64,000 nucleotides of DNA, taken from assembly GCA_963812015.1 (NCBI GenBank), contig CAWETI010000003.1, forward strand, positions 928,001-992,000. The letters run 5' to 3'. This stretch comes from an uncultured delta proteobacterium (lineage in GTDB: Bacteria; Desulfobacterota; Desulfobaccia; Desulfobaccales; 0-14-0-80-60-11). The notes below the pieces were generated by a model that saw only the letters and a program-made list of their open reading frames with translations, had not been told where the DNA came from and searched no databases. This document shows positions 704-16,032 of the stretch, piece by piece (the first letter of the stretch is position 1; the number at the start of each line of letters is the position of its first letter). A program made the translations under genes and the position numbers.

Positions 704-719
704 TGGCACATCCCTTGCT
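704..719 (+). promoter_or_regulatory. sigma54 (-24/-12) promoter upstream of the histidine kinase
   Basis: TGGCACATCCCTTGCT matches TGGCAC-N5-TTGCW with exact GG-N10-GC spacing. Confidence 0.8.
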
Positions 720-1062: not shown

Positions 1063-3357
1063 ATGAGTCCTGGCAAACAGCTCTATCATTTAGGTATTGT
1101 GGGGGCAGGCCGGCAAGGCATGGCCATCCTGGAGGCCTTGGTTCCTCCTCGGCGAGATGATCAAGCCTTGCAGGTGGTGGGGGTGGCGGATCTGAACCCG
1201 GAAGCTCCCGGTATTATCTATGCCTACCGGCATAATCTCTTTGTGACGGTCAATTTTGATGATTTACTGCAACTGCCTGCATTAGACATCGTCGTCAACG
1301 CCACCGGCCGCCCGGAAGTTTCTCACCAATTGCAAGAGCATCGACCTGAGGGGTTAATAGTCCTCAGTGTCGATCGCCCCTATTCTTGGGAGGACTTCTG
1401 GGACCTCATTTCTATGGATCTCTCTCCGATCCAAGAAGTTGGCCCCTTGAAAATCGGCATTGTGGGGGGAGGCAAAGGAGGTCATGAGGTTCTCCAGCTC
1501 ATAGCCGGAGATCAGCGTTACCGGCGAAAATTTGAAATCCTCGGGGTAGCTGATCCTAATCCCCAGGCCCAGGGCATGATCCTGGCAAAAAGTTTGGGTA
1601 TTCCGACCTTTCACAAATGCACGCTCCTCCTGAAGGAAAAACCGGACCTGATCTTGGAACTCACCGGGGACCCGGAAGTGCGGGAAAGAATCATCCAGCA
1701 AAAGGACCCCCATACCCAGATTATCGACCACACCAAGGCCCGGCTCTTTTGGGATCTCTTATACCGAGAGGAGGACCGGCTGCGCAGCAAGGTGGAGAGC
1801 GAAATCAGATTAGCCGGCCAGCGCAATCGTTTCCAAAGCATTTTCGATCACTTGCCTGATCCGGTGCTCGTGATCAAACCTAACTACCTGGTGGAGGAGG
1901 CCAACCGCACCTTTCTCAACCGCTTTCAGAAAAGTGGGGCAGAAGTCATTGGGAGACCCTGTTTTGAGGTATTTCATCAGTTTGATAGGCCTTGCGATAG
2001 CAAAGGCCTGGCCTGTCCCTTGCCGAGCGTCCTGGAGAAATCTGAGGCGCTCCAAGTTTTACAGCGCTACGTAGATACCGATGGCACGATGCGCTATGAC
2101 GAAATTACTATGTCGCCTCTGTGTCCGCCGGAAGGGACCCGAAAGCGGGTAATCGAAGTCATCAAGGATATCACCCCCCGCAAGCAGCTCGAAGAGGCGC
2201 TGCAGGGTTCGGAAGAAAAAACCCGGCAGCTGCTCCGACAGACGAATAAGAGCAAAGCCTTTTTGGAGACGATCGTCAATGGCATTGAAGATCACATGAT
2301 GGTGATCGATCTTGATTACCGCATTATCGAGGTCAATCGGGCCTTGTTGGAAATGGTGGGGTTGAATCGGAAAGACGTGGTGGGCAAGCACTGTTATGAG
2401 GTATCGCACCATCTGGAGAAGCCGTGCGCCAGTCCCGATCACCCGTGTCCCTTGAAAGACGCGGTGGCCACGGGCAAGGCGGCCTCCGCCACCCATGTGC
2501 ACTTCGACAAGGACAGCCGGGAGCATTACATTCACGTGGTCTGTCACCCGTTGTTTGACGAGCAAGGATGGGTCCACCGAGTGATTGACTTGTCCCGGGA
2601 CATCACCGAGGAAATCACTGATCGCACCCGGGTGCTGCACGATGACAAAATGACGTCTTTGGGAAAATTGTCCGCCAGCGTGGTGCACGAGATCAACAAC
2701 CCGCTGACCGGCATCCTCAACTTCACCAAATTGGCGCAACGCATACTGGGCAAGGAGGCCACCGGCGACGAAGAATTGGGTAAGATACGTAATTATCTCG
2801 ATATGATCTACAACGAGACCTCCCGAGTCAGTCGCACGGTGTCCAACCTGCTGGCCTTTTCCCACAAGACCAGGCCGGAATCCAAGCCGGTGGATCTCAA
2901 TGCAGTGCTGGCGGAGACCGTATCACTGACCGAGTACCAGATGCGGCTGCAGGGGATCACGGTGGAACGCCAATTGGCTTCGGATCTGCTCCCGGTCATG
3001 GCGGATGAGGGAGCTCTGAAACAGGTTTTTTTGAATCTCGTGTTGAATGCCACAGACGCCATGCCGAAGGGTGGGACTCTGACCTTGACGACCAAGAATT
3101 CCCGGGGCCGAGAAGTGGTGGTACAGGTTTCCGACACGGGGGTGGGCATCCCCAAGGATTGTTTTTCCCAGATATTCGAACCCTTCTATACCACCAAGAA
3201 GGCCGGCTCCGGGGTGGGGCTGGGGCTCTCCGTGGTGTACGGGATCGTCCGGGACCACAAGGGCAACATCAAAGTGGACAGCGTCGTGGGGCAGGGGACC
3301 ACATTCACTATCCGTCTGCCGGCCTTTAAACCGTTAGAGGAGCCTGCCGCCACTTGA
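1063..3357 (+). CDS. Soluble NtrB-type sensor histidine kinase with two N-terminal Rossmann-like domains and two PAS domains
   Basis: GIVGAGRQG and GIVGGGKGG repeats, each followed by VAD(L/P)NP; two PAS domains with CxEV/CP motifs; H-box VVHEINNPL, N-box NLVLNA, G1 DTGVGI, F FEPFYTTK, G2 GVGLGL; no TM segment seen. Confidence 0.9.
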   Translation: MSPGKQLYHLGIVGAGRQGMAILEALVPPRRDDQALQVVGVADLNPEAPGIIYAYRHNLFVTVNFDDLLQLPALDIVVNATGRPEVSHQLQEHRPEGLIVLSVDRPYSWEDFWDLISMDLSPIQEVGPLKIGIVGGGKGGHEVLQLIAGDQRYRRKFEILGVADPNPQAQGMILAKSLGIPTFHKCTLLLKEKPDLILELTGDPEVRERIIQQKDPHTQIIDHTKARLFWDLLYREEDRLRSKVESEIRLAGQRNRFQSIFDHLPDPVLVIKPNYLVEEANRTFLNRFQKSGAEVIGRPCFEVFHQFDRPCDSKGLACPLPSVLEKSEALQVLQRYVDTDGTMRYDEITMSPLCPPEGTRKRVIEVIKDITPRKQLEEALQGSEEKTRQLLRQTNKSKAFLETIVNGIEDHMMVIDLDYRIIEVNRALLEMVGLNRKDVVGKHCYEVSHHLEKPCASPDHPCPLKDAVATGKAASATHVHFDKDSREHYIHVVCHPLFDEQGWVHRVIDLSRDITEEITDRTRVLHDDKMTSLGKLSASVVHEINNPLTGILNFTKLAQRILGKEATGDEELGKIRNYLDMIYNETSRVSRTVSNLLAFSHKTRPESKPVDLNAVLAETVSLTEYQMRLQGITVERQLASDLLPVMADEGALKQVFLNLVLNATDAMPKGGTLTLTTKNSRGREVVVQVSDTGVGIPKDCFSQIFEPFYTTKKAGSGVGLGLSVVYGIVRDHKGNIKVDSVVGQGTTFTIRLPAFKPLEEPAAT

Positions 3358-3455
3358 GAAGATTAAGATCCTGGGGGTGGATGACGAGCTCAGCAGCCGC
3401 GCATCTTTAAGCGGCTGGCGGTCTCATGGGTATTCCCGCTAGCCGGGAAAAATTG

Positions 3456-3503
3456 GGCCGGAAGGTTTTGGCGTTTTGCGACCATCGCCAAATCCTTCCG
3501 GCC
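3456..3503. terminator. Hairpin between convergent genes (possible bidirectional terminator)
   Basis: GGCCGGAAGG-TTTTGGCG ... CGCCAAAT-CCTTCCGGCC inverted repeat. Confidence 0.5.
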
Positions 3504-3536
3504 GATTACTGAGTGGTTTAGGGGAGAGTGGCCGGC

Positions 3537-6449
3537 TCAGGCGGACCGGAGAAACTCCTTAACCAAGAGCTCCCATCCCAATTTGGGGTAGTGACCGTAG
3601 ACGTCATCGATGATCGTGCCGCCGGATTGGAGGGTGGCGCCCACCGAGGGTTCCAGCATCGCGACCAGCCTGTTGGATTCATCTTCGATCCAGGCAAGGT
3701 TGTCCTCGCCCAAGGCCAGGTTTTCCAGGTCCGGCTGCAGATTGGTGGAGGCGATGACCATCAGCCAGCCGTCGCCGTAAGGGTCGTCATGGGCCAGCCC
3801 CGCTCTTTTCAGGACCTTGGGATTCACCGCTTCGACGATGCCATCCAGAGGCGCCAGGACCGCCGCCTGGTTGCCCCGGCGGGTTAGCGTCAGGGCCACC
3901 TCTTCACGGCGAATTTCCTGCCCGATTTCAGGCAGCCTGATTGCATCGGCGCGGCCCAGGAGCTTCTGGGAAAAGTCATCCAGGCCGATGCGCACCCGAC
4001 CGCCCTGCTCCAAGGACACCCAGGTATGACCCCGGTGGAGGTAGCTGGAAGTCGGCACCTTAAAGCCGAAGACTTCCTGAAGCTGACCGACTAACTTACC
4101 GAAATTAACGGCGCACCCCTGGTATTCCGGCAGCTTGGTGATGGGGTCCAGAACCGCACTGATGAGCCGGTTAACCGGGTCGTCCAGGAAGTGCATGGGA
4201 ATGAAGGCCGTGCCCGGCCTGACCCGATCGGTCAACAGGGCTTTGGCCGCGAGGGTTCCCCGGCGGCTGCTGGTCCTGATTAGTTCTCCAGGTTGAATTC
4301 CCCGTTGCCGGGCATCGTGGGGATTGATTTCGATGAAGACATCCAGGTTTTCATGGTAGAGGGAGGGGTAGCGGTGGGTCATGGTGCCGGTGGTCAGCCA
4401 GAAAGGATATTCCGCATCCGGTTCAGCAGCCGGGCGGCTGAGGTTGGCGACCAACTGATCAACCGCGTTTAAAAAGTCCCCGGGGGCATTGGCGGCCAAG
4501 GACTGAAAGAGGAGGCGGTTGGGATCAATGCCGGCTTCGGCCAGAAGCTCCTGCACCTGCTCCACCCGCCACTGGGCGCACAGGTTGCCGTGGGAAGATT
4601 TGCAGTTGTCTTGGGGGCATGAAAGGACCAGCACGCCATCGGCGCCGGAGTTAAAGGCCTGGAGCAAATAATCCACGTCAACCTTGCCGGCACAGGGCAT
4701 TTTTACGGGGGTGAAGCCCAGGGGCAGGGCGGCATAATTGAGCTTCAAGGCGGTTTGATAGGCCTCCCAGGCGGAGTTGCGGCACATGAAGGCCACGATC
4801 CGGGGGCTTAATTCGGGGTTCAAGGCCCCAAAGAGAGCAGTCATTTGCTCGTCGGTGCAATTCCGGATCTGAATGGCCTCATTGGGACACTGGCTGGCGC
4901 AAATGCCGCAGCCCTGGCAGGCCAGCTCATTAATAAAGGCCCGATTGTCCCAGGTTATGGCGCCGTGAGGACAGAGGCGGTGGCAGGTCAGGCAGAGCAC
5001 GCACCGGCCACGGTCCACCACGGCCCGCCCCTGGGGCGCGACAGCCTGGCCCTGGCCCAAGAGGCCCTGAATCTCATTGACTGCAACACTTATATCAGTG
5101 CCGGTCTCTTCCCGGCCCATGATCCCCCGGCCTGGCCCGACGACATAAATGCCCCGTCGGGTGGTGGACACCGGGATATGGTGGACATTGTCAGACTGGA
5201 GGAAACCCCTGGAGCCTAAGGGCAGGCGGAGCAATTCGGCCAGCTCGGCGTTTTCGGCGGCGGCCTGGTATTGTTCCTCATAAACTGCCAGGTCAACTGC
5301 CAGGCTCAGTTCCTCGCGCATCGTCGGCTCGAAGAAGGTTACCCGCAGACCTTCGCCCTTGACGCTGACGGTGGGGCATTCTCTCAGTTTGAAGAGCAGC
5401 ATGCCGGCCTCCTGGTTGGCCCGCATGGCCCGCTCCAGGCCCGGGCCCGCCAGCTTGGCGTTACCCACCAACAGGTAAACCCGGCTGCCGACCTCCAGCA
5501 GACGGGACGCCGCCCTCAAGGCCCGACCTAGGGCCAGGGGATTGCTCTCCCCGTCCAGGCCCACCAGGATAGCCGCGGTTTCTGGAATTTTCTGTCCGGA
5601 ACCGCCGGCCAGAAGCTCTTCAACCCAGGTTTGGGATACCACTCCCGGATATTTTGAGGCGTCGTCACTGGGGAGGGCGTCTCGCAGATGCAACTCAGGG
5701 GCCAGAAGCACCGCGCCCACCGGCTCGGTCAAAGGTCCTTGGGGCGTATCCAGCCGCAGGGTGAAATTGCCGGTGGCGCCGTCAAAACCACTCAGCTTGG
5801 CGGCAAAAACCGTGCTAATGAGGCGATGTCCCTGGACCTGCCGGACAAGCCGGGCGGCAGAGTCGGACTCAGCCGCGTCCCCGGCATCCACCAAGGCGAG
5901 GGGCTTGAGCTCAGGGTTGGGGCTTGCCAAAATAACCGGGTAGCCCAACTGCGCCAATTGCCAGGCGGCTTCCAGACCGGCCGAGGAATCCCCCCAGACC
6001 AGAACTTGACGGCTGACGGGGATAGCTTGAGGGACAATGGGCCAGGCCCGGGTGACTTGCGAGGCCGCCAGGCGAATCATTTCCAGGCCTTTGGCGGTCC
6101 GGGAGGGTTGGTCCGGGTGTTCCAGGGCGGCGGTCAGGTCCACGAGCTTAAGGCGTTCCGGATTCAGCCCCAGCTCGCCCGTTAACAGGCGGGCCATCCC
6201 GGCCCCCCGATACTCCGGGTCTTTGGCCACCAGGACCACCGGATTGATCTCCTGGTCCTGGCTGAGGAAGGTGCGCACCCGCTCCTCTTGCTGGGCAGTC
6301 GGCAGGGCCGGATCCGCCAGCAACACCCGGCAGTTCGGCAGGTCCGCCACCGCCCGGGAAAAGTCCTGGGGATCAAGTCCCGCCAGGCCCAACTCCGGGC
6401 CATGCATCACCAAAACATTCAGCGGTTTCGCAGGAAGGGATAGATTCAC
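3537..6449 (-). CDS. Multidomain fusion (about 970 aa): degenerate HdrA/QmoB-like flavoprotein + 2x[4Fe-4S] + MvhD + molybdopterin-dinucleotide-binding domain + GcvH-like domain
   Basis: GTG start overlaps the upstream stop (GTGA at 6449-6446); CVLCLTCHRLCP and CQGCGICASQCP; MvhD motifs FMCRNS, PCAGKVD, GADGVLVLSCPQDNC; EYPFWLTTG..IEINPHDA..SRRG..PEYQGCAV; HRGHTWV..VRIGLDDF..APLDG..DPYGDGW. Confidence 0.85.
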   Translation of the reverse strand: MNLSLPAKPLNVLVMHGPELGLAGLDPQDFSRAVADLPNCRVLLADPALPTAQQEERVRTFLSQDQEINPVVLVAKDPEYRGAGMARLLTGELGLNPERLKLVDLTAALEHPDQPSRTAKGLEMIRLAASQVTRAWPIVPQAIPVSRQVLVWGDSSAGLEAAWQLAQLGYPVILASPNPELKPLALVDAGDAAESDSAARLVRQVQGHRLISTVFAAKLSGFDGATGNFTLRLDTPQGPLTEPVGAVLLAPELHLRDALPSDDASKYPGVVSQTWVEELLAGGSGQKIPETAAILVGLDGESNPLALGRALRAASRLLEVGSRVYLLVGNAKLAGPGLERAMRANQEAGMLLFKLRECPTVSVKGEGLRVTFFEPTMREELSLAVDLAVYEEQYQAAAENAELAELLRLPLGSRGFLQSDNVHHIPVSTTRRGIYVVGPGRGIMGREETGTDISVAVNEIQGLLGQGQAVAPQGRAVVDRGRCVLCLTCHRLCPHGAITWDNRAFINELACQGCGICASQCPNEAIQIRNCTDEQMTALFGALNPELSPRIVAFMCRNSAWEAYQTALKLNYAALPLGFTPVKMPCAGKVDVDYLLQAFNSGADGVLVLSCPQDNCKSSHGNLCAQWRVEQVQELLAEAGIDPNRLLFQSLAANAPGDFLNAVDQLVANLSRPAAEPDAEYPFWLTTGTMTHRYPSLYHENLDVFIEINPHDARQRGIQPGELIRTSSRRGTLAAKALLTDRVRPGTAFIPMHFLDDPVNRLISAVLDPITKLPEYQGCAVNFGKLVGQLQEVFGFKVPTSSYLHRGHTWVSLEQGGRVRIGLDDFSQKLLGRADAIRLPEIGQEIRREEVALTLTRRGNQAAVLAPLDGIVEAVNPKVLKRAGLAHDDPYGDGWLMVIASTNLQPDLENLALGEDNLAWIEDESNRLVAMLEPSVGATLQSGGTIIDDVYGHYPKLGWELLVKEFLRSA

Positions 6450-7693
6450 GTCCGTGCCTCCAGATATTGACGCACCCGCCTCACCGACTGGGTCGCCTGG
6501 GCGATGCATTCCAAGATGCTTTGGGGGCCGGTGGCGGTGCCGGCCAGAAAAATGCCCGGGGCCTCGGCCCGAGTGCCGTCCAGGCCGTCCCTAAAGAAGC
6601 CGTCCAGATTCAGCTCCAGGTGCAGCATTTCAGCCAGCTTGGCATTGTCCGGCCCCGGAGCAATACCCACCGCCAGGACCAAGAGATCAACCTCTTTGGC
6701 CAGGGCCCGGCCGCTGGACTCGTCCAAATACCGCAGCCTCAGACTCTCGTCTGCCGTGGCGGCCACGTCGCCGGGGAGGGCTCGGATCAACTCCAATTCC
6801 TGCCTGGCGGCTGCCTCGAAATTCTCGGGGTCCGAGCCGACATTTTGCAGGTCCATGTAGAAAGTGGTCACTTCGCACTCCGGCCAGCGATGGCGGATCA
6901 GCCGGGCCAGGCGCAACCCATAGGCGCAGCAGACCCGGGAGCAATAGGCATGCTCCTGATCCCGGCTACCCACGCACTGGATGAAGGCCAGACGCCGTAC
7001 CGGCCGGCCGTCGCCAGGTCTGACCAGAGGCCCGCCCTGACGCATCATCTCCTCCAATTCCCCGCCGGTGATGACGTGGGGTAAACGCGCATTGGCATAA
7101 ACCGCCCGGCAGGAAGGCTTCGCAGGTTCATAACCGGTGGCCAGGATGAGGGTCGAGGTCTCCAGTTCAACCACGGTCTCGGGCCGGTCCAGGTCGATGG
7201 CCCCGGTGACGCAGAGGTCCTGGCAGACATGGCAGGAGCCGTCTTGAAAATAGAGGCAGGCAGCCGGATTCACGGCGACGCGGGGATGGTTCTCGACTGA
7301 GGCCGCGTTCACCAATGCTCCCAGGGCGGGGCACTTTTCCAGACAGATGCCGCAATCAATGCAGCGCTGAGGGTCGATGATCTGGGGCTGGGACTTCAGG
7401 GTGAGGCGCAGCAGGCCGTTCTCAGACCGGCTTTTCACCAGTTCCGTGTGCCCATAAAGGGTGAGGCCCGGCGCCGCAAACAGGTCCCGCAGACCCTGTT
7501 CGACCCGGCAAGCGCCACATTTCTGGCAGACATCAGTGGCCTTGCAGCCAAAGCTGGCGGCCCGGCCGCCGAAGAAGGGGCTCTTTTCCACCAGGGCCAC
7601 CGGCAGCCCCGCCTGGCTTAACTCCAAGGCCGCAGTAATGCCGGCGATGCCGCCGCCCAGGACTACCACCGGATTTATTTTATCGCTTCTCAT
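6446..7693 (-). CDS. Short HdrA/QmoA-like FAD and [4Fe-4S] protein
   Basis: VVLGGGIAG FAD motif, CIDCGICLEKCP, AFIQCVGSRD..YCSRVCC HdrA cluster motif. Confidence 0.88.
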   Translation of the reverse strand: MRSDKINPVVVLGGGIAGITAALELSQAGLPVALVEKSPFFGGRAASFGCKATDVCQKCGACRVEQGLRDLFAAPGLTLYGHTELVKSRSENGLLRLTLKSQPQIIDPQRCIDCGICLEKCPALGALVNAASVENHPRVAVNPAACLYFQDGSCHVCQDLCVTGAIDLDRPETVVELETSTLILATGYEPAKPSCRAVYANARLPHVITGGELEEMMRQGGPLVRPGDGRPVRRLAFIQCVGSRDQEHAYCSRVCCAYGLRLARLIRHRWPECEVTTFYMDLQNVGSDPENFEAAARQELELIRALPGDVAATADESLRLRYLDESSGRALAKEVDLLVLAVGIAPGPDNAKLAEMLHLELNLDGFFRDGLDGTRAEAPGIFLAGTATGPQSILECIAQATQSVRRVRQYLEART

Positions 7694-7776: not shown

Positions 7777-8670
7777 TCATACCCCCGCCGCATCCAGAAG
7801 CAGGGTCATGAGGTCGCTTCGGCCCTGGACTTTCACGTAGGCGCCGTCAGCGAGTTTCTCCTCCCTGATCTTCTTGAGCAAGCGCCCGGCCACGGCGGCG
7901 CCCTTCTGCACAACTGCTTCGGGGTCAGTCCCCGCCATTTCCTTGACCACCTCCGGCGGCAGGGAATATACCTTCCGGTGCTGGCCCAGTACAGCCTGGT
8001 CCACTTCCGAAGCCTTAGGCACCTTGATGCAGGCCAAAATCTTCACGTCCGGATCACCCAGGGATTGCCTGAATTGGCGAAACTTCCCCAGGGCGAAAAT
8101 GGGGGCGGTGATAAAAAATTGGGCTCCCGCGGCCTGCTTTTTCTTGAACTTGAGTAGTTGCGGGTTCATGGGGTCGGCCTCGGGGATGAGGACCGCGCCC
8201 AAGTAAAACTGTGGGTTCCCGTCCAGGGGCAGATCGGCGCTATCGTGTCCCGCCATCAGCCCCCGGGCGATTTGCAGGAGCTGCACCGAGTCGGCGTCAA
8301 AGACCGGTTTAGCGTCGGGATGATCCCCCAGGGTGACGTAATCTCCACTTACCGCCAGGATATTTTCCAGACCCAGGGCGCCGGCGCCCAGCAAATCACT
8401 CTCCAGGGCCAGGCGGTTACGATCGCGGCAAGTCAGGTGGAGCAAAGCTTCACCCCCGGCCTCCTTGACCAGCGTGGCCGCGGCCAAGGCCGAGAGTTTC
8501 ATCCGGGCATGCTCGTTGTCCGGAATCCCGAAGGCGGTTACTTTACCCGTGAACGCCTTTATTTGAGCCAGCATCCCCTCCAGGGCGATTCCCTTGGGAG
8601 GTTTAACTTCCATCACCAGGGGGAACTGGCCGGCTGCCAAAGCTTCCTTGAGCTTACTCATGGATGCCAT
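7777..8670 (-). CDS. metF: Methylenetetrahydrofolate reductase, MetV-associated type
   Basis: EVKPPKG, HLTCRDRNRLALESDLLGA, SGD..GDHP..KPVFDADSVQL; adjacent to metV; start could be 8661. Confidence 0.88.
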   Translation of the reverse strand: MASMSKLKEALAAGQFPLVMEVKPPKGIALEGMLAQIKAFTGKVTAFGIPDNEHARMKLSALAAATLVKEAGGEALLHLTCRDRNRLALESDLLGAGALGLENILAVSGDYVTLGDHPDAKPVFDADSVQLLQIARGLMAGHDSADLPLDGNPQFYLGAVLIPEADPMNPQLLKFKKKQAAGAQFFITAPIFALGKFRQFRQSLGDPDVKILACIKVPKASEVDQAVLGQHRKVYSLPPEVVKEMAGTDPEAVVQKGAAVAGRLLKKIREEKLADGAYVKVQGRSDLMTLLLDAAGV

Positions 8671-9334
8671 ATCTCCTCTTATAACCCGGGTGGATCACCG
8701 TGCCTGGGGTGGTGCTCCGGCTGTGAGGATGGAGCGGCAAAATCGGCTCGATCTGCCCCAGCCGCCCTTCCTGTTCCAACCTTTCATAAATCTCGCACCA
8801 GGCGCAGGCCCGGTCCGGATTGACCTCGCACTTGCCTTGGACGTTGCCGCCGCAGGGACCGTTGAGCAACCCTTTGGGGCACATGGTTACCGGGCAAATC
8901 CCCCCGGTCACCCCCAGGTAACAATGGTGGCAGGCCCGGCAGCGCTCGGTATAATAGCCCGCCGCCTCGTTAACCCCGATGAACGTCGTGTTGAGGGCCG
9001 GAAAGATCGGTTTCATCGGGTAGAGCGAGGCCAGAAACTGCACCCCGGCGCCGCAAGCCGTGGAGATGATGGCGTCATGGTCGGCGATGACGTCGCGCAA
9101 GGGCTGGATAAATTCCAGGTCGCACTGGCGTTCCACCGTGATTTCCCCGATCCCCAGGCTCTGGCCTTCTGCCCTCAAGGCGAGCTTCATTTGGGAGGCC
9201 AGCAGCCCCACCTCTTTTTCCCCACCGGCCAGGCAAACCGCCACACACGTGCCGCACCCGACAATGAGGATCTTTTCGAAGGGCGCCACCGCCGCCTTGA
9301 TTTCCGCAAAGGGTTTCCGTTCAGCGATAATCAT
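8654..9334 (-). CDS. metV: MetV, Fe-S subunit of methylene-THF reductase
   Basis: MIIAERKP, GCGTCVAVCLAGG, ERQCD, ACGAGVQ, CRACHHC..ICPVTMCPKGLLNGPCGG..CAW. Confidence 0.9.
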   Translation of the reverse strand: MIIAERKPFAEIKAAVAPFEKILIVGCGTCVAVCLAGGEKEVGLLASQMKLALRAEGQSLGIGEITVERQCDLEFIQPLRDVIADHDAIISTACGAGVQFLASLYPMKPIFPALNTTFIGVNEAAGYYTERCRACHHCYLGVTGGICPVTMCPKGLLNGPCGGNVQGKCEVNPDRACAWCEIYERLEQEGRLGQIEPILPLHPHSRSTTPGTVIHPGYKRRYGIHE

Positions 9335-9792
9335 CTTTGCACCACCGGTTCGGTCTCCTCCGGGGCCACCGCCACCGGTGCCGGTGTCGGGCTCAGGGGA
9401 CTGGGGCCCAGAACTTTAACTTTTTCATTCATTTCTTTCACCGCGGCCACCCACTTGGGGGCGTCCGAGGCGGCAATTTCATACATGACCAGGCGCTCGG
9501 CTCCCAGGCCGCTCTCTTCTATCAATTGCCGGGCATATTCTACCCGTTCCCGAGCTCTAAGATTTCCCTCCAGGAAATGGCAGCTTCCCGCCTCGCAGCC
9601 ACTCACCATGATGGCGTCGGCGCCGGCCTCAAAGCCCTTCAAAATATGGAGGATGTCAATCCGGCCGGTGCACAGGTATTTGACGATACGCACATTGGCC
9701 GGGTACTGCATCCGGGCCGACCCCGCCATATCCGCGGCCGTGTAAGTGCAATAGGTGCAAATATAGGCCAATATCTTAGGAGTAAATTCCAT
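9331..9792 (-). CDS. mvhD: MvhD/FlpD [2Fe-2S] subunit
   Basis: ILAYICTYCTYTAAD, CTGRID, GADAIMVSGCEAGSCHFLEGN; Cys (not Sec) at all ligand positions. Confidence 0.93.
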   Translation of the reverse strand: MEFTPKILAYICTYCTYTAADMAGSARMQYPANVRIVKYLCTGRIDILHILKGFEAGADAIMVSGCEAGSCHFLEGNLRARERVEYARQLIEESGLGAERLVMYEIAASDAPKWVAAVKEMNEKVKVLGPSPLSPTPAPVAVAPEETEPVVQR

Positions 9793-9824: not shown

Positions 9825-12800
9825 TCAACTCCTTGCTGCCAAGCTAACCGTTGGCCAAGGGGAGCCGATGGCCCCAATTTTGGCAATAAATTGCTCGTCC
9901 AGGTTGTGCTTCACCGCAATGGCCTTCCGGGGGCAGGCGCTGGCGCAGTTGCCGCAGCCCTGGCAGGACGCCGGGTCAATGATCACGACCCTTTCGGCCT
10001 CGTCCACCCTCGGGACTCCGTAGGGGCAGGTGCGGACACAGGTCAGGCAGACGACGCACTTGAGGGGGTCCACCTGGGCCACCGCCCCGTCCACATACAT
10101 CTCTTGTTGGGACAGGACCCCCAGGGCCCGGGCTGCCGCCCCCTTGGCCTGGGCGAGGCTTTCATCCAGGAACTTGGGACCGTGGGCCAGGCCGCACAAG
10201 AAAATGCCGGCGGAGGCGAAATCCAGGGGTCGCAGTTTCAGGTGGGCTTCCATGAAGAAGCCGTCGGCATCAAAGGGCAACTTGAAGGTCCGGGCGATTT
10301 CCTGACTCACCGGATGGGGCCGGATGGCCGAGGAGAGGACCACATAATCAGCCGTAAGCTCCAGGTCCGCCTGGAGAGACTGGTCGTAAACCGCCACTCT
10401 GAGGCTCTGGCCCGCCACCGCCACTTCGGGTTTCCGGTCCGGATCAAAGCGCACAAACTGGACCCCCAGGTCCCGGGCCTTCTTATAGTAAATTTCCTTG
10501 AGGCCGTAAGTCCGGATATCCCGGTAGAGGATGAAGACCTGGGCCCGTGGACTGATCTCTTTGATTTTAATGGCGTTTTTGATGGCCTCGCCGCAGCAGG
10601 TGCGGCTGCAATACTGGTGTTCCGGCTCCCGGGAGCCGACGCATTGGATCATCACCACCCTGGGCTCGGAGCTTAAGGCCTCGGGGGTGTCGGCCAGCAG
10701 GTCCTCCATGGCCGATTGGGTGAGGACCCGGGAATCCTGGCCATACAGGTATTCTTCCGGTTTATACTCCTGACCCCCGGTGGCGATGACTACCACGCCG
10801 AATTCCAGGTCCTTGCGGTCGTGGCCTGATTCCACCGTGCCCCGAAATTTGCCGATATGGCCGGAAACGTTCAGGACCTTGGTGTTGGGCCACCAGTCGA
10901 TGCGGGGGTGGTGTTCCACCCGGCGCACCAGCTCCTGAAGAAAAGGCTGAACTTCATAACCTTCCAGGGTGGAGCGCATCCGCTGGGCCAGGCTGCCGAC
11001 GAGCCGGTCCTGGGCTTCCGCCAGGTAGACCTGGTAACCGCCGTCGGCAATGGTCAGGGCCGCGGTCAGGCCGGCCAGGCCGCCTCCCAACACCAGGGCC
11101 TTCTGGCTCACCGGGAAGAGCAGGTCGCTCAAAGGCTCCAGGATGGCGGCCCGGGCCGTTGACATGCGCACCAGTTCCTTGGCCTTTTCGGTGGCCAGCT
11201 CCGGGGACCCCTGGTGGACCCAGGAGTCCTGGTCCCGGATGTTGGCCATCTCAAAGAGGTACTTGTTCAATCCGGCCTTCCGCAGGTTCTCCTGGAACAG
11301 GGGTTCATGGGTCCGGGGGCTGCAGGAGGCCACCACGATCCGGTTAAGGTTTTCGGTTTCGATCACCTGGCGCATGTTGTCCAGAGAATCCGTGGCGCAG
11401 GTGAAGGTATAGTGGTCGGCATAAACCACATTGGGGAGCGTGAGGGCGTACTCGGCCACCGCGACCACGTCCACCACCCCGGCGATGTTGATGCCGCAGT
11501 GGCAAATAAACACACCGATCCGGGGCTTGGCCCCGATGATCTCCTTTTCCGGGGGGTATGCTTCTTTGGTGAGCAGGGTGCCCCGGGCCTCGGCGAGCAA
11601 GGCCGCCGCCGCCCCGGCCGCCCCGGAAGCCTGGCCCACGGTCTCCGGAATATCTTTGGGAGACTGGAAGGCGCCGCAGGTGAAAATCCCTTCCCGGGAG
11701 GTGGACACCATCTCCAGGGGCCGGCTTTCGACAAAGCCCCAGCGGTCCGTGGCGATGTCGCAGTTGGCCGCCAGTTCCCGGGTAGCCGGATGGGGGTTCA
11801 GGCCCACGGAGAGCACTACCATGTCAAAGATCTCGGTCTGAACCTGACCGGCTTCGTCGACGTAACTGAGTTCCAGATTATGGGTGCGGGGGTCTTGGGC
11901 CACCCGGGAGACCATGGCCCGGATATAGCGCACCCCGTGCTCGGTCTTGGCCCGCTCGTAGTACCGGTCAAAGCCCTTCCCCTGGGCCCGAAAATCGATG
12001 AAGAAGATGGTGGGCTCAATATTATGGTCGTGCTCCCGGGCGATGATGGCCTGCTTGGTGGCGTACATGCAGCACACGTACGAACAATATTCCCGGCCAC
12101 AGGAAGCATCCCGGGAGCCCACGCACTGGATCCAGGCCACTTTCCGGGGCGGGTCCCCGTCGCCGGGGCGTAGCACATGCCCGCCATAAGGCCCGGTGGC
12201 GGAGAGCTCTCGCTCGAACTGGAGGGAAGTCACGACGTTGGGGTAGCGGCCGTAACCGTATTCGGGCTTCTGCCCGGCGTCGAAAGGCCTGAAGCCCGGA
12301 GCCAGGATCATGGCCCCCACCTCGATTTGCCGAGTTCGGGGCTGATCTTGGTGGTTAATGGCGCCGGCCTGGCAGGCAGTTACACACTGCATACATTCGG
12401 AGCACCCCCCGCAATTGATGCAGCGGGCCGCTTCGGCTATGGCTTTGGCTTCGGGGTAGCCCAGGTTGATTTCCTGGAAGCCCTTGATCCACTCTGCCTT
12501 GGGCAACTCCGGCATCATGGGCCGGCGCTTTTTGACGCGGTCGGCCGGCACCGGACTCCAGCGGCCGGCTTCCTTGGCAATCGGCCGGAGGGGCATCTCC
12601 CGCCCGGCTTTCAGATCCTGGCCATTGAGATAGCGGTCGATGGACAGCGCGGCTTCCCGGCCCGCGGCCACCGCGGCGATGGCGATGTAAGGACCGGAGA
12701 CCACGTCGCCGCCGGCATAGACACCCGCACGGCTGGTGGCCAGGGTATCCGGGTCCGCCTCGATCAGGCCCCGGGGGGTGAGTTTGATACCATCCGCTTC

Positions 12801-14303
12801 GGTGATAAATTTGAGGTTGGTCTTCTGGCCGATGGCCATGATGACGATATCGGTGTCCCGGCTTGTGGTTTGATCTTCCCGGTAGGTGGGAGCAAAGCGC
12901 CCGTTTTCATCAAAGACCCGTTCTACGGCTTTGAGTTCGAGGCCGGTGACCAGGCCCTTCAGAGCGAGAATCTGCTTGACGCCCCAACGGTGGATGATCT
13001 CGATGCCCTCGTGCTCGGCCTCGGCCACTTCCCAGGAGGAAGCCGGCATCTCTGCACGGGATTCGAGAGAGATGACCGTGATCGCGCCCCCCTGGCGCCG
13101 GGCCGTCCGGGCCACGTCCATGGCCACGTTGCCGCCGCCGATGACCGTTACTTTCTTGCCCGTGAAGTCGAACTCTTGACCGGAAGCTGAGTCTTTCAGG
13201 TATTCGACGCCCCAGAGGACTCCCTGGGCGTCAGCGCCGGGCACCGGCAAACGGAGCGAATCTTGAGCCCCCACCCCCAAGAACACCGCCCGGAAGCCTT
13301 CCTGGGTGAGAAGATCGTTGATGGTGCGGCCGGAGCCGCCCATGGGGGAGTTATAGTTGATCTGCACCCCCAGGCGCTGGATGTAGTCTACTTCGCGCTT
13401 AAGGACTTCCCTGGGCAGGCGGTACTCGGGAATGCCGTACCGCAGCCAGCCGCCGGCCTCCGGCGCCGCTTCGAAGATCACCGCTTGGTAGCCCTTGAGG
13501 GCGAGATGATAGGCGCAGCTTAAACCGGACGGTCCGGCCCCGACAATGGCCACGGCCTCGGACCGCTGGTCCACTTCGGGCATCGGCAGCGTTTTCCAGT
13601 CCACCGAGTCGGCCACAAAACGCTTCAGATTGCAGATGGCCACGGGCTCGTCCACTTCCTGGCGCCGGCAGTCCACTTCGCAGGGATGGGGGCAGATGCG
13701 GCCGATGGTGCCGGGGAGCGGCAGCCGGTCCATGATGAGGGAGAGGGCCTCGGGGAATTTCCCCGCCTTGACGAGCTGCACATAGCCCTGCACGCTCAAA
13801 TTTGCCGGACAGCCCCGGACACAGGGGGCCCGGTCCAGCTTCTTGATGGCAAAGGTGGCCGGAATCGCCTGGGGGAAGTGCCGGTAGGCGGCATGGCGCA
13901 CGCCCAGGCCCTCATCGAAAGCCGAGGGCATTTCCACCGGGCAGGCTTCCGCACAGGCTCCGCAGGCGTTGCACTTGTCACGGTCGATGTAGCGGGGCTC
14001 CTGGCGGAGAGTGACGCGGAAATGGCCCGCCTCACCCTCCACCTTGGCAACCTCCGACTGAGTGATGATCTCGATGTCGGGGTGCCGGGCCACCTCGATG
14101 AGCTTGGGAGAGATTAAACAGGTGGAGCAATCGTTGGTGGGAAAGGTCTTGTCCAACTGGGCCATGACCCCGCCGATGGAGATGTCCTGCTCCACCAGGT
14201 AGACCTTGAAACCCGCATTCGCTGCGTCCAGGGCGGCCTGCATGCCGGCGATGCCGCCCCCCACCACGGTGATGGCGCCGATTTTTGTGTGGTCAGTTGG
14301 CAT
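9825..14303 (-). CDS. hdrA: Large HdrA (HdrL type) with an inserted GltD-like NAD(P)H/FAD oxidoreductase module
   Basis: VVGGGIAG..LDKTFPTNDCSTC; APCVRGCP..GRICPHPCEVDCRR, IVGAGPSG, VIGGGNVAMD (GltD-like); WIQCVGSRD..CSYVCC; FICHCGINI, ASCSPRTHE, NIRDQDSWVH; C-terminal ferredoxin. Confidence 0.92.
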   Translation of the reverse strand: MPTDHTKIGAITVVGGGIAGMQAALDAANAGFKVYLVEQDISIGGVMAQLDKTFPTNDCSTCLISPKLIEVARHPDIEIITQSEVAKVEGEAGHFRVTLRQEPRYIDRDKCNACGACAEACPVEMPSAFDEGLGVRHAAYRHFPQAIPATFAIKKLDRAPCVRGCPANLSVQGYVQLVKAGKFPEALSLIMDRLPLPGTIGRICPHPCEVDCRRQEVDEPVAICNLKRFVADSVDWKTLPMPEVDQRSEAVAIVGAGPSGLSCAYHLALKGYQAVIFEAAPEAGGWLRYGIPEYRLPREVLKREVDYIQRLGVQINYNSPMGGSGRTINDLLTQEGFRAVFLGVGAQDSLRLPVPGADAQGVLWGVEYLKDSASGQEFDFTGKKVTVIGGGNVAMDVARTARRQGGAITVISLESRAEMPASSWEVAEAEHEGIEIIHRWGVKQILALKGLVTGLELKAVERVFDENGRFAPTYREDQTTSRDTDIVIMAIGQKTNLKFITEADGIKLTPRGLIEADPDTLATSRAGVYAGGDVVSGPYIAIAAVAAGREAALSIDRYLNGQDLKAGREMPLRPIAKEAGRWSPVPADRVKKRRPMMPELPKAEWIKGFQEINLGYPEAKAIAEAARCINCGGCSECMQCVTACQAGAINHQDQPRTRQIEVGAMILAPGFRPFDAGQKPEYGYGRYPNVVTSLQFERELSATGPYGGHVLRPGDGDPPRKVAWIQCVGSRDASCGREYCSYVCCMYATKQAIIAREHDHNIEPTIFFIDFRAQGKGFDRYYERAKTEHGVRYIRAMVSRVAQDPRTHNLELSYVDEAGQVQTEIFDMVVLSVGLNPHPATRELAANCDIATDRWGFVESRPLEMVSTSREGIFTCGAFQSPKDIPETVGQASGAAGAAAALLAEARGTLLTKEAYPPEKEIIGAKPRIGVFICHCGINIAGVVDVVAVAEYALTLPNVVYADHYTFTCATDSLDNMRQVIETENLNRIVVASCSPRTHEPLFQENLRKAGLNKYLFEMANIRDQDSWVHQGSPELATEKAKELVRMSTARAAILEPLSDLLFPVSQKALVLGGGLAGLTAALTIADGGYQVYLAEAQDRLVGSLAQRMRSTLEGYEVQPFLQELVRRVEHHPRIDWWPNTKVLNVSGHIGKFRGTVESGHDRKDLEFGVVVIATGGQEYKPEEYLYGQDSRVLTQSAMEDLLADTPEALSSEPRVVMIQCVGSREPEHQYCSRTCCGEAIKNAIKIKEISPRAQVFILYRDIRTYGLKEIYYKKARDLGVQFVRFDPDRKPEVAVAGQSLRVAVYDQSLQADLELTADYVVLSSAIRPHPVSQEIARTFKLPFDADGFFMEAHLKLRPLDFASAGIFLCGLAHGPKFLDESLAQAKGAAARALGVLSQQEMYVDGAVAQVDPLKCVVCLTCVRTCPYGVPRVDEAERVVIIDPASCQGCGNCASACPRKAIAVKHNLDEQFIAKIGAIGSPWPTVSLAARS

Positions 14304-15151
14304 CAGATCAATCCTTTATCCTTCAGCAACGGCCGCGGGTCCACCAGATGGCGGGCGAGCCAGGCCTCGGCCTCGGGGTGCCCCAGGGCCAACCCGATGA
14401 GTTCGGTAAAATAGAACACCGGCAAGTAGTAATCTTGGCCAAACTTTGCCGAGATGCGCGCCTGGGCCAGATCCAGGTTGGCCTGGCACATCTGGCAAGC
14501 GACCACGAAACACTCGGCCCCTGCCGCCATGGCCCGGTCATAGAGGCGGTTCACCAGGGTATCGATAATATCCGGCCGGGCCATCGCTAGGCCAGCGCCG
14601 CAGCAGTCGGTCTTGTAGGACCAATCAAGGGGCTCGGCCTGCAGCACGTGGAGCAATCGCTCCAAATCCTGAGGATTTTCCCAATCGGCTTTGTCGGTGA
14701 TCTCCGGTGGCCGAGATGCCAGGCAGCCGTAATAGCCCACCGCTTTCAGGCCGGTCAGGGGCCGCACCATCTTCTGCTCCAGGTTGGACAGAAATGATTT
14801 CTGGGTGAGGAAGTCCAGCAGGTCCCAGATCTTGACGCCATTTTGGGGAGAAACCGATAAGCCCTCTTCCCGGCGGTGCTGCTCCTTTTCGGCGGCTTTG
14901 AGCCGGTTGAAGCACAGGGCGCAGGGAACCACCACGTCCATTCCGGCCTGCCGGGCCAGGGCCAGGTTGCGGGCCGGAAGCTCAAAGGACAGTTGATGAT
15001 TGAGGCTGTGGGCGGCACTGGCGCCGCAACAGTTCCAATCCTCAAGTTCGGCCAACTCCAGGCCCAGCAGCGGAGTGACGGCGGCGATGGACGCGGCGTA
15101 ATCTGCGGCGGTGCCTTCCAAAGAACAGCCTGGGTAATAGGATACCTTCAT
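14303..15151 (-). CDS. hdrB: Heterodisulfide reductase subunit B (two CCG domains)
   Basis: MKVSYYPGCSL, WNCCGA, PCALCF, YYGC, DCCGAG, ACQMCQANLD. Confidence 0.93.
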   Translation of the reverse strand: MKVSYYPGCSLEGTAADYAASIAAVTPLLGLELAELEDWNCCGASAAHSLNHQLSFELPARNLALARQAGMDVVVPCALCFNRLKAAEKEQHRREEGLSVSPQNGVKIWDLLDFLTQKSFLSNLEQKMVRPLTGLKAVGYYGCLASRPPEITDKADWENPQDLERLLHVLQAEPLDWSYKTDCCGAGLAMARPDIIDTLVNRLYDRAMAAGAECFVVACQMCQANLDLAQARISAKFGQDYYLPVFYFTELIGLALGHPEAEAWLARHLVDPRPLLKDKGLI

Positions 15152-15158
15152 GAGTGCC

Positions 15159-15740
15159 TTAAGCCCCCGAATGTCGAAAGATTTCTTTGATCTCATCGCG
15201 CCCCTTGAGGGCCGGTGGGCCGGCCGGGTGCAACCGGCCGCGTCTTAAGAGGCCCCAGCCAAGCTTGAAATTTTCCCAGAGCTCTCTGATTTGAGGCCGC
15301 CGCCGGAGTTTATACAGGGTAAAGCGTCGCATCAGCGCCACTTCAGGCAAGCGCCCCCCAGCCCGGCGGATGCTTGCCAGGAAGAAGCGATGGAAAACCG
15401 CGACCTCCGGCTGATCGATGGTCTTTCCCTGCCGGATCGCCTCCTCCTTGAGCCAGTCCATGACGCCGGCGATGTCGATGCCATTGGGGCAGCGGGTGCT
15501 GCACGTGACGCAGGCTGCGCAGACCCAGATGGTCCGGCAGCCCAGGAGCGCTTCCGTTTGACCCAGGAGAGCCAGACGGATGACCCGGTCCGGGAGCACA
15601 TCCATAGCAAAAGTCAGGGGACAACCGGCGGAGCACTTTTTACATTGAAAACAGGAGGACAGCGGAGTGGCCATTTCCTTGGCCAGGCGCTCCTGTAAAG
15701 CAAAAGCAGGGACCAGCGGTTGGGTTGGGTTGATTTCCAT
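15159..15740 (-). CDS. hdrC: Heterodisulfide reductase subunit C
   Basis: CFQCKKCSAGCP and IWVCAACVTCSTRCP; ATG at 15740 with GGAG upstream. Confidence 0.9.
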   Translation of the reverse strand: MEINPTQPLVPAFALQERLAKEMATPLSSCFQCKKCSAGCPLTFAMDVLPDRVIRLALLGQTEALLGCRTIWVCAACVTCSTRCPNGIDIAGVMDWLKEEAIRQGKTIDQPEVAVFHRFFLASIRRAGGRLPEVALMRRFTLYKLRRRPQIRELWENFKLGWGLLRRGRLHPAGPPALKGRDEIKEIFRHSGA

Positions 15741-16016
15741 AAAGATTAGCTCCAATGAGAAGATCTGCCTCTCGTGCCGGCTATCCAGGTGAAAGCGTGG
15801 CGACCGGCGGCCTTCTCTGGATATTCTATAAGTAGGATAGCCAGGTTCATGGTAAATTCACCAATCCGGCCGGTATTTCCGAGTATGTCCAAGGTGCCCC
15901 GATGCAATCTTACTGAGCAGAAGATTTATGCCGGCCGGGCCTGGATGGCGGCAACCGGATGCGCCGCAGTACGTTCTCCTGATCATTTTGGCTGGCCTGG
16001 ACATTACCTCTATTCA

Positions 16017-16032
16017 AGCAAAGGATATGCCA
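16017..16032 (-). promoter_or_regulatory. sigma54 promoter of the hdrCBA-mvhD-metVF operon
   Basis: Minus strand TGGCATATCCTTTGCT, GG-N10-GC spacing, about 280 nt upstream of hdrC. Confidence 0.75.

Follow-up and report, generated by a model that had tools for sequence, protein, structure and literature searches.

A five-module HdrA-like protein with a predicted flavin-less body and a formate dehydrogenase/H-protein-like tail in a desulfobacterial MetVF-Hdr operon

The X gene and its operon

The DNA considered here is a stretch of 64,000 nucleotides (nt) from an uncultured delta proteobacterium of the Desulfobaccales (assembly GCA_963812015.1, contig CAWETI010000003.1, positions 928,001 to 992,000), which is referred to below as “the window”, and the subject of the analysis is a single gene within it, called X. 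The 970-amino acid (aa) product of X comprises, in order, an HdrA fold, a ferredoxin domain for two [4Fe-4S] clusters, an MvhD domain, an orphan “domain IV” of the formate dehydrogenase (FDH) subunit FdhA, and a GcvH fold. An earlier note, made from the sequence alone, had described one continuous frame with five fused modules, and this description holds: the minus-strand frame 3537..6509 runs for 990 codons without interruption, and the Pfam matches lie where that note had placed the modules (Table 1). The GTG at 6449 is almost certainly the start codon actually used, because it shares bases with the TGA of hdrA', the gene before it (as GTGA), has a GGAGG 8 nt upstream of it, and gives a product which matches an identical 970-aa protein already on record (P0002). 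Pfam residue positions of X are given here in the numbering of the 990-aa frame.

Table 1. Features of the X locus, in window coordinates, and the location of the cassette of free module copies elsewhere in the same genome.
Feature	Position	Strand	Basis or remark
Sigma-54-like -24/-12 site upstream of the PAS kinase gene	704-719	+	Pattern search, perfect match
PAS histidine kinase, convergent with X	1063..3357	+	Pfam
Gene X, 970-aa five-module protein	3537..6449	-	Stop codon 3537-3539, GTG start 6449
X: GcvH-like module (H-protein fold 3702-4037, helical extension of ~55 aa)	3540..4085	-	PF01597 GCV_H, residues 825-936, 66.4 bits, cut-off 22.2
X: orphan FdhA domain IV (Molydop_binding)	4086..4439	-	PF01568, residues 708-800 (window 4110-4388), 85.4 bits, cut-off 26.8
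X: MvhD domain ([2Fe-2S]-type), 4 invariant Cys	4440..4799	-	FlpD/MvhD PF02662, residues 571-690, 100.4 bits, cut-off 22.3
X: 2x[4Fe-4S] ferredoxin domain	4869..5024	-	Pfam Fer4 x2, residues 496-547
X: HdrA-fold body (N-domain and pseudo-thioredoxin-reductase domain), no FAD motif, cluster cysteines or inserted ferredoxin	5040..6449	-	hhalign, Foldseek, phmmer
hdrA', 415-aa QmoA-like flavoprotein with inserted ferredoxin	6446..7693	-	Stop overlaps X start
metF	7777-8670	-	PF02219
metV	8654-9334	-	PF12225
mvhD	9331-9792	-	Pfam/NCBIfam
hdrL-type, 1492-aa HdrA/GltD fusion	9825-14303	-	Pfam/NCBIfam
hdrB	14303-15196	-	Pfam/NCBIfam
hdrC	15159-15755	-	Pfam/NCBIfam
Sigma-54 promoter-like site TGGCAT-N5-TTGCT, ~260 nt upstream of hdrC	16017..16032	-	Pattern search, 1 mismatch
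Cassette in locus L009	L009:106-6826 (G000:C3:2003106-2009826)

The assignment of the last two modules to MopB_CT and GcvH, as the earlier note had made it, is supported both by Pfam and by matches to solved chains (7bkb_D and 1onl_A, respectively). The PF01568 match covers profile positions 13-110 of 110, and Pfam finds neither a PF00384 molybdopterin catalytic domain in X nor any match in its residues 1-490, while NCBIfam holds no specific family for X or for its GcvH-like module. X is the last gene of an eight-gene operon with the order hdrC-hdrB-hdrL-mvhD-metV-metF-hdrA'-X. A pattern scan of 3200-3700 found no terminator or sigma-70 promoter. About 3 kb beyond hdrC lies an open reading frame of 292 aa, 18647-19525 (-), which by eye resembles a classical MetF and would be a second one.

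Distribution and integrity of the five-module form

A search of 5.8 billion proteins yields homologues of X in three length classes: “long forms” of 950-980 aa with all five modules (31 clusters, 51-74% identical to X), “mid forms” of 789-791 aa which terminate right after domain IV (five clusters), and “short forms” of about 676 aa, in many clusters, which terminate after MvhD. Among the best 80 loci in contigs from one genome per species, 11 match residues 1-969/970 of X, all of them in metagenome-assembled genomes labelled Desulfobaccales, Desulfobacca, Syntrophobacterales or “delta proteobacterium”. A single open frame of 970-980 aa is obtained at nine of the 11; of the other two, L019 was translated from an incorrect start and L032 carries a frameshift. 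When 83 genomes of the class are searched (E<=1e-120), the long form is found in 16 (in three of them as fragments), the short form in 20, and neither in 47. Among 35 loci (L013-L047), the operon order is the same in every long-form or short-form locus that is long enough to show it, and more distant Desulfobacterales loci retain metV-metF-hdrA'-X-like at 37-40% identity.

The modules of the long form differ in their degree of conservation. Over the pairs formed by 10 long forms the mean identity is 62% for the N-domain, 62% for the pseudo-reductase domain, 82% for the ferredoxin domain, 76% for MvhD, 71% for the GcvH-like core and 74% for its C-terminal extension, and it falls to 49% (minimum 30%) for domain IV, which is the least conserved module of X.

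The earlier note had advised that reads be checked across the junctions at about 4420 and 4085. A contig of the probable source run covers window positions 3300-6700 with 0 differences, and a 705-nt contig obtained in another study covers 3969-4673 at 96% identity, so that both module junctions are bridged independently. The probability that X is an assembly chimera or a mis-joined frame is negligible given this second contig together with the recurrence of the architecture, well beyond this assembly, at 11 independent species-representative loci, in 16 of 83 class genomes and in 31 protein clusters.

In the genus of the window organism (g1, 18 genomes including that of the window), the long form is present only in the window genome; the short form is found in seven genomes at about 51-52% identity, with one of these seven, G215, being represented by a fragment only (68%). 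The long forms closest to X (70-73%) belong to another genus. The isolation of the long form within g1, together with the position of its nearest relatives in another genus, suggests that an operon replacement or transfer may have occurred in this lineage.

The predicted flavin-less body and its complementary partner

The N-terminal part of X, some 470 residues, is an HdrA fold. A phmmer search retrieves solved HdrA chains (9sfi_A at 7.7e-29); the AlphaFold model of the whole protein, with a mean predicted local distance difference test score (pLDDT) of 71.8, reaches 80-95 across the HdrA-like part; and Foldseek aligns the model with HdrA chains over some 650-670 columns (8rvu_A at 5.5e-29; 7bkd_A with a template modelling score, TM, of 0.64). 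The fold is accompanied by the C-terminal 2x[4Fe-4S] ferredoxin expected of an HdrA, while the GxGxxG motif and the core cluster ligands are absent and the scores of X against the HdrA family models (205.8, 113.3 and 106.8 bits for NF041778, NF041891 and NF040770), of which the best is that for HdrA2, remain below the respective cut-offs of 1100, 1300 and 1400.

The motifs in question were compared by profile alignment, because pairwise BLASTP between X and the HdrA' protein encoded immediately upstream returns fragments only. The hhalign comparison aligns residues 145-466 of X to residues 9-413 of the HdrA' family with a probability of 99%, and it confirms what the earlier note had read from the letters, namely a broken flavin adenine dinucleotide (FAD) motif and the loss of the IQCxGSR/CS..CC ligands. 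The sequence VWGDSSAG of X lies opposite GGGIAG of the neighbouring HdrA' and GAGIAG of solved HdrA, and opposite the CKATDxCQKCGAC motif, the inserted ferredoxin and IQCVGSRD..CSRVCC there are in X only gaps or residues other than Cys. No conserved Cys is found in residues 1-470 of X across 31 long, 7 mid and 78 short forms.

The same note had called the HdrA part “degenerate”, and in the sense of decay this term does not survive comparison with the homologues. All 42 of the homologues aligned have W-G-D-S without exception, and the altered dinucleotide motif is present across the whole family, including the tail-less 676-aa forms, which speaks against decay; the predicted flavin-less state is therefore older than the tail and under selection. 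The ferredoxin and MvhD domains are intact, as had been proposed: their 8 and 4 cysteines (the latter at 556/586/611/616) are invariant in these long, mid and short forms, and solved MvhD chains match the MvhD domain. By its cysteines X thus retains three clusters, of which two are [4Fe-4S] clusters of the C-terminal ferredoxin domain and the third is of the MvhD type.

The partner protein HdrA' is intact at the positions where X is altered. It has GGGIAG (G13-G18), C50/56/59/62, two CxxCxxCxxxC sets and C240/251/255/256, with 16 conserved Cys in all, and it lacks the N-domain, the C-terminal ferredoxin and MvhD, all of which X possesses. Each protein holds what the other lacks, and thus the pair resembles QmoA/QmoB, or a split HdrA homodimer in which one subunit is catalytic and the other serves for wiring. 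We infer the pairing from this complementarity, from the translational coupling of the two genes and from their strict co-occurrence; on balance, X would seem to serve HdrA' as a wiring partner without flavin, both being parts of a MetVF-Hdr complex.

Origin of the tail

The stand-alone Molydop_binding domain of X, with its shortened LTTGTMT and no catalytic molybdenum domain, had also been pointed out in the earlier note, and its affinity is to FdhA: it matches residues 562-683 of the FdhA chain 7bkb_D at 5e-21, whereas FwdD is matched only at 2e-3. A search among longer proteins with the last 300 residues of X retrieved P0270, which matches 99% of the query at 66% identity. P0270 is a 720-aa fragment that begins just past the Sec/Cys position of an FdhA, as comparison with the full Cys-type FdhA in L150 indicates; its catalytic domain is followed by domain IV and then by the same GcvH-like module as in X. 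P0270 and X have in common the ending LVKEFLRSA and the linker between domain IV and the GcvH-like module. They differ by a 9-residue deletion in X that is flanked by a TGT repeat (LTTGT[ISSQYLTGT]MT becoming LTTGTMT), and the segment after LTTG that is typical of FdhA is unrecognisable in most X orthologues.

Three trees, which are consistent with one another, bear on the history of the tail. In the tree of the GcvH-like module the order is P0270, the window X, a small clade of P0271 and P0272, and then the 30 other X tails (supports 98/85, 92/69 and 94/85), while in the domain-IV tree the window X falls together with P0270 and true FdhAs (100/98) and is separate from the remaining X tails. 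In the tree of residues 1-665, built by a quick method, the short forms and the long plus mid forms make up two clades (SH-aLRT 100 each), and the window X is the sister of all 37 remaining forms that have a tail (98). The tail was probably captured once, at the base of the long clade, from the 3' end of a gene of the fdhA-gcvH-like type; the direction of capture rests on the placement of P0270 between true FdhAs and X tails, because the trees are unrooted. On the simplest reading of these trees, the window lineage would be the earliest-branching one, with the least diverged and most FdhA-like tail of any X. The mid forms branch from within the long forms, close to P0007, and are therefore taken as secondary losses or splits. 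The anatomy and evolutionary history of X as described here are, taken together, very probable.

FdhAs resembling P0270 (73-80% identity) are common in the genomes of the class, but they end after domain IV, and the fusion of FdhA to the GcvH-like module is rare, being represented in the 83 class genomes by one contig-end fragment only (G255). A search of the 80 loci for an fdhA gene downstream of short-form X gave no FdhA catalytic match.

Two metagenomic proteins of 597-598 aa, P0271 and P0272, have an FdhA-type catalytic domain that runs straight into the GcvH-like module, domain IV being absent; their module is 73-74% identical to that of the window X. Elsewhere in the window genome, L156:2955-5909 (G000:C3:663955-666909) encodes an FwdB-like protein and an FwdA-like amidohydrolase beside three HdrA-type genes, one of which specifies an 819-aa HdrA-MvhD fusion. 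The window genome contains no free FwdD.

The GcvH-like module and its family

The model of the module built from a deep alignment has pLDDT values of 90-98 and superposes on solved H-proteins with TM 0.83-0.93 and a root-mean-square deviation (rmsd) of 1.3-2.0 A at about 26% identity, the best match being 3a8j_E (TM 0.93, rmsd 1.3 A). Module and GcvH have the motifs HxW, DDF and DPYGxGW in common, while the helical extension of about 55 residues, conserved and marked by GG and W motifs, finds no structural match. Alignment to a solved GcvH (1onl_A, E 9e-13) puts TRRG of X opposite ESVK, as the earlier note had it, so that the lipoyl Lys is replaced by Gly. The lipoyl column varies among the 31 long forms, and Lys is found there in a minority clade (“YRGK”: P0019, P0021, P0033-36).

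An exhaustive profile search collects 3910 representative proteins at E<=1e-3, 1555 of them at E<=1e-10. Among the best 150 relatives most are covered over the whole 182 residues of the module and are free-standing proteins of 210-330 aa. In 156 segments from 148 representatives the lipoyl column holds G 74, D 21, E 16, S 12, K 8 and A 8 times, with others in 17, and there is usually an Arg two positions ahead of it. No Cys is conserved in the module of X. The module scores 57.9 bits against the 115.85 required by TIGR00527 and 62.5 against the 117 of NF002270, is below the cut-offs of TIGR03077 and NF045810 as well, and obtains 28-38 bits from the NCBIfam model “GcvH-related, Desulfo”, the cut-off of which is 150; the clusters of the module are labelled in the ESM Atlas only as “hypothetical” or “putative GcvH”. 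By sequence the module belongs to a separate family that is predicted to be non-lipoylated.

Members of this family also occur fused to other proteins, among them response-regulator receiver domains (P0175, P0267) and 2x[4Fe-4S] ferredoxins (P0160, P0164), and in P0178, of 1391 aa, three tandem copies precede an enzyme composed of an FAD-oxidase (GlcD-like) and a Fer4_8/CCG (HdrD-like) part. A four-Cys motif, C-x-[WH]-M-x2-G-x5-K-x-C-x5-C-x2-C-x-[FY]-D, is present near the N-terminus in 35 of the 148 family representatives and in the N-terminal 60 residues of L009:3111-3938 (-); it corresponds to no Pfam family and could be metal-binding or redox-active.

The sole canonical-looking GcvH of the window genome is L010:1224-1718 (-) (G000:C2:1331724-1332218), which has IEAKNG where ESVK is expected. 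It scores 121 bits against the NF002270 cut-off of 117 and is below the cut-off of TIGR00527; by hand count its Lys is one position off.

Free copies and the kinase/sigma-54/M54 cassette

The window genome contains three free copies of the module, all in locus L009, which are 51-62% identical to the tail of X and have Gly at the lipoyl column. The order of genes in L009 is PAS kinase, sigma-54 activator, M54 peptidase, two copies, the third copy, and then hdrL-hdrA-mvhD-fdhA(Sec)-hdrC-hdrB. The peptidase is of the archaemetzincin type and has an intact HExxHxxGxxH; a second Peptidase_M54 gene of the genome (G000:C3:1114193-1114492) lies outside the X and L009 loci.

In a sample of 201 genomes from the whole phylum, 71 contain a match to the module at E<=1e-15, often in tandem arrays, some of these 71 being ordinary GcvH that match only to residue ~140. 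The context of the free copies was sampled by taking the best match from each of 20 genomes outside the order of the window organism, with about 19 kb around each (L129-L148). In 16 of the 20 loci the kinase, sigma-54 regulator and M54 genes are accompanied by one to three GcvH-like genes; 8-9 of these 16 cassettes are directly beside hdrL-mvhD-metV-metF or hdrC-hdrB-hdrL, and five are beside Fer4_11/NrfD/cytochrome c genes. The M54 gene is missing in three of the sampled loci (L129, L134 and L137). The kinase, sigma-54 and M54 genes recur while the redox genes vary, and thus it is the regulatory genes that are the constant partners of the free copies. The literature searched (titles, abstracts and some passages) contains no description of this cassette, nor of the architecture of X, which the earlier note had likewise known no description of; the main text of PMC4641369 makes no mention of GcvH, glycine cleavage, metzincin or hdr.

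Comparison with known systems

Of known systems QmoA/QmoB comes closest to X; among solved structures it is methanogen HdrA/MvhD, and among characterised operons that of Moorella thermoacetica. A flavin-less HdrA, an H-protein-like tail or an orphan FDH cap is not known from any of them. X resembles QmoB in being an HdrA-like protein with a C-terminal ferredoxin and a fused MvhD, encoded after a QmoA-like flavoprotein, and some source annotations of X homologues do read “QmoB”. QmoB has a flavin site of its own, a membrane partner in QmoC, and an aprAB context. X, in contrast, has no FAD motif or core cluster ligands and carries an additional tail of 300 aa, and among the eight genes of its operon, to which this comparison was confined, there is neither a QmoC-like membrane subunit nor aprAB.

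In methanogen HdrA/MvhD (5ODC, 7BKB, 8RVU, 9SFI) and in HdrA-MvhD fusions of the HdrA2 type the fold is like that of X, and the ferredoxin and MvhD cysteines are intact in X; the difference is that X has the invariant WGDS in place of the flavin site and has no inserted ferredoxin. The Moorella thermoacetica enzyme is a MetFV-HdrABC-MvhD complex, and its operon clusters the same families as the X operon (metV, metF, mvhD, an hdrA-type gene, hdrB and hdrC), but the X operon, in a bacterium of the Desulfobaccales type, has the 1492-aa HdrL-type HdrA/GltD fusion and the HdrA'/X pair in place of HdrA. HdrL is treated in passages of PMC2702500, and lipoylated GcvH and MetVF of acetogens in passages of PMC8760232.

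As for the tail, X keeps domain IV of FdhA (PF01568), which groups on the tree with the domain IVs of true FdhAs, but lacks the catalytic domains I-III and has the 9-aa deletion in LTTG...TGTMT. FwdD, the known free-standing domain IV, is only remotely similar, and no full PF00384 partner lacking its own cap is present. The barrel-sandwich fold of the H-protein is common to the X module and to GcvH, LbpA and GcvH-L; the X module differs from all three in the absence of the lipoyl Lys, in the Arg two residues earlier and in the helical extension, and the context of its family is one of redox and regulatory genes, not of glycine cleavage, sHdr or macrodomain/sirtuin genes. The earlier note had drawn an analogy with LbpA, whose context is sHdr sulfur oxidation (PMC6067878); the analogy fails at the defining lysine, which is absent from the X module, and no sHdr, DsrE or lipoate-ligase families were seen among the genes of the X operon.

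Proposed explanation and alternatives

The explanation which best accounts for these data as a whole, and to which a probability of about 0.5 is assigned, combines a wire pair of X and HdrA', a single capture of the tail, and a GcvH-like binding module with a regulatory role. X and HdrA' would associate as a QmoB/QmoA-like pseudo-dimer, which would imitate an HdrA homodimer but with only one active flavin, and in which X would act as an electron wire leading from the MvhD cluster through the two [4Fe-4S] clusters to the FAD of HdrA'. The MetVF-Hdr complex would in this way couple methyl-/methylene-tetrahydrofolate (THF) chemistry to NAD(P)H (through HdrL) and to a disulfide (through HdrBC). 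Domain IV would have been brought along in the capture of an fdhA-gcvH-like gene and would persist as a cofactor-less spacer, a relic role which we consider likely, while the GcvH-like module would be the selected part of the tail, a cofactor-less protein-binding module. The tail would carry no substrate; its free relatives sit in a PAS-kinase/sigma-54/M54 cassette beside redox operons, and it may therefore let such a system sense or control the complex. Regulatory coupling of the module to the kinase/sigma-54/M54 system is slightly favoured over structural docking, and then only tentatively. In a broader and still more tentative form of the proposal, the module with its extension would be a new class of cofactor-less, H-protein-like signalling adaptors, part of a widespread redox-control cassette of Thermodesulfobacteriota and repeatedly fused to enzymes (X, FdhA) as a regulatory handle, possibly under the control of proteolysis. 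The PAS kinase convergent with X in the window may be part of the X system.

The earlier note had proposed a non-catalytic adaptor linking an Hdr/MetVF complex to FDH or glycine-cleavage partners, or else a regulatory subunit. The non-catalytic nature of the C-terminal modules and the membership of X in an Hdr/MetVF operon agree with the adaptor. The link to glycine cleavage finds no support: the module belongs to a separate family predicted to be non-lipoylated, and no glycine-cleavage genes are found beside those X operon loci and stand-alone family loci which were annotated. The link to FDH is retained in the derivation of the tail from an FdhA-GcvH-like fusion, from which binding to an FDH does not follow, and the idea of a regulatory subunit gains indirect support from the free relatives in PAS-kinase/sigma-54/M54 cassettes and from the receiver-domain fusions.

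Several observations weigh against the explanation preferred here, above all against its regulatory part. The cassette is not adjacent to the X operon in the window, and it is absent from most long-form X loci, with a sigma-54 regulator downstream in L022 and L023 only and a full cassette in L076. No sigma-54 activator or M54 gene is found near the window kinase, the 14 kb past which contain unrelated genes. The sigma-54-like sites of the window are consensus matches only, and the six found with at most one mismatch compare with 2.1 expected by chance. The GcvH-like part can be lost or split off, as in the five nested mid-form clusters, and the fusions of the module to FdhA, ferredoxins and a GlcD/HdrD-type enzyme would suit structural docking equally. 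Finally, per-module ratios of nonsynonymous to synonymous substitution (dN/dS) proved noisy, with implausibly low dS in short segments, and amino acid identity was used instead.

Structural docking, the closest competitor, would make the module a cofactor-less “dockerin” that fixes FdhA, ferredoxin or X to Hdr-type complexes, for example to HdrL; the tail of X would tether HdrA'/X to the MetVF-Hdr complex, and the free copies would represent small subunits whose genes stand at the head of the operon. This is possible but doubtful. It accords with the high conservation of the module, with its fusions to FdhA (P0270, P0271/2), ferredoxin (P0160, P0164) and the GlcD/HdrD-like enzyme (P0178), and with the free copies that lie, co-directional, just ahead of hdrL-mvhD-metVF or hdrCB-hdrL in L139, L141, L142, L144 and L145, but 11 of the 20 sampled loci have no Hdr gene within about 9 kb (five of these have Fer4_11/NrfD/cytochrome c neighbours), the kinase, sigma-54 regulator and M54 peptidase are the constant neighbours, and the receiver-domain fusions suggest signalling. 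It is unlikely that the whole tail is functionless baggage of an accidental fusion and that X works as the 676-aa forms do. The FdhA origin of the tail, the low conservation of domain IV, the deletion in the window copy of a segment conserved among true FdhAs, the unrecognisable post-LTTG segment of most orthologues and the mid forms without a GcvH-like part would all be in keeping with such a relic; yet the GcvH-like core (71%) and its extension (74%) are more conserved than the HdrA-like body (62%), and the frame is intact in nine of 11 loci and in the 31 clusters of 950-980 aa. A relic is plausible for domain IV alone and not for the module behind it.

Two further possibilities assign a biochemical role to one part of the tail. 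Domain IV might complement, in trans, a molybdopterin enzyme which has no domain IV of its own, as FwdD does for FwdB, with either the FwdB-like protein G000:C3:663955-665280 or a P0271-type FdhA as the candidate. Such FdhA proteins do occur elsewhere (P0271, P0272), and the FwdB-like protein, of 442 aa (PF00384, 21 bits), is followed by an amidohydrolase and lies beside HdrA-like genes. This role is nevertheless highly unlikely, given that each of the eight full PF00384 domains of the genome carries its own PF01568 domain, that the FwdB-like gene is found in 58 of 83 class genomes (including G009, which has no X, and G051, which has the short X) and in only 8 of the 16 long-X genomes, and that the domain resembles FdhA far more closely than FwdD (5e-21 against 2e-3) and has its conserved loop deleted or degraded. 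It is just as improbable that the GcvH-like domain is a swinging-arm carrier which brings lipoate or another thiol cofactor to HdrB in the manner of LbpA in sHdr systems: the GcvH fold, the Hdr context and the Lys of the “YRGK” clade would fit such a carrier, but Gly occupies the lipoyl column in X and in its three free paralogues, K is found in 8 of 156 family segments, no Cys is conserved in the module, and the scores are far below the NCBIfam GcvH cut-offs.

Significance

What is new here is the tail junction which X has in common with an FdhA-GcvH-like protein, the module family, predicted to be non-lipoylated, and the regulatory cassette context of its free members. Which electron partners MetVF-type methylene-THF reductases and bacterial Hdr-like complexes have, and how they are controlled, are standing questions in the energetics of the Wood-Ljungdahl pathway. 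X and HdrA' would provide a conserved, asymmetric pair of HdrA type, made up of a flavin subunit and a pure iron-sulfur “wire” subunit, and this pair is linked to a very large uncharacterised family of H-protein look-alikes that appear unable to carry lipoate. The FDH tail, probably grafted once onto an Hdr subunit, would be a clean example of domain capture. If the module is a docking or signalling device, then hundreds of “glycine cleavage H” annotations would be explained without recourse to glycine, and there would be a handle on how anaerobes regulate electron-bifurcating complexes.

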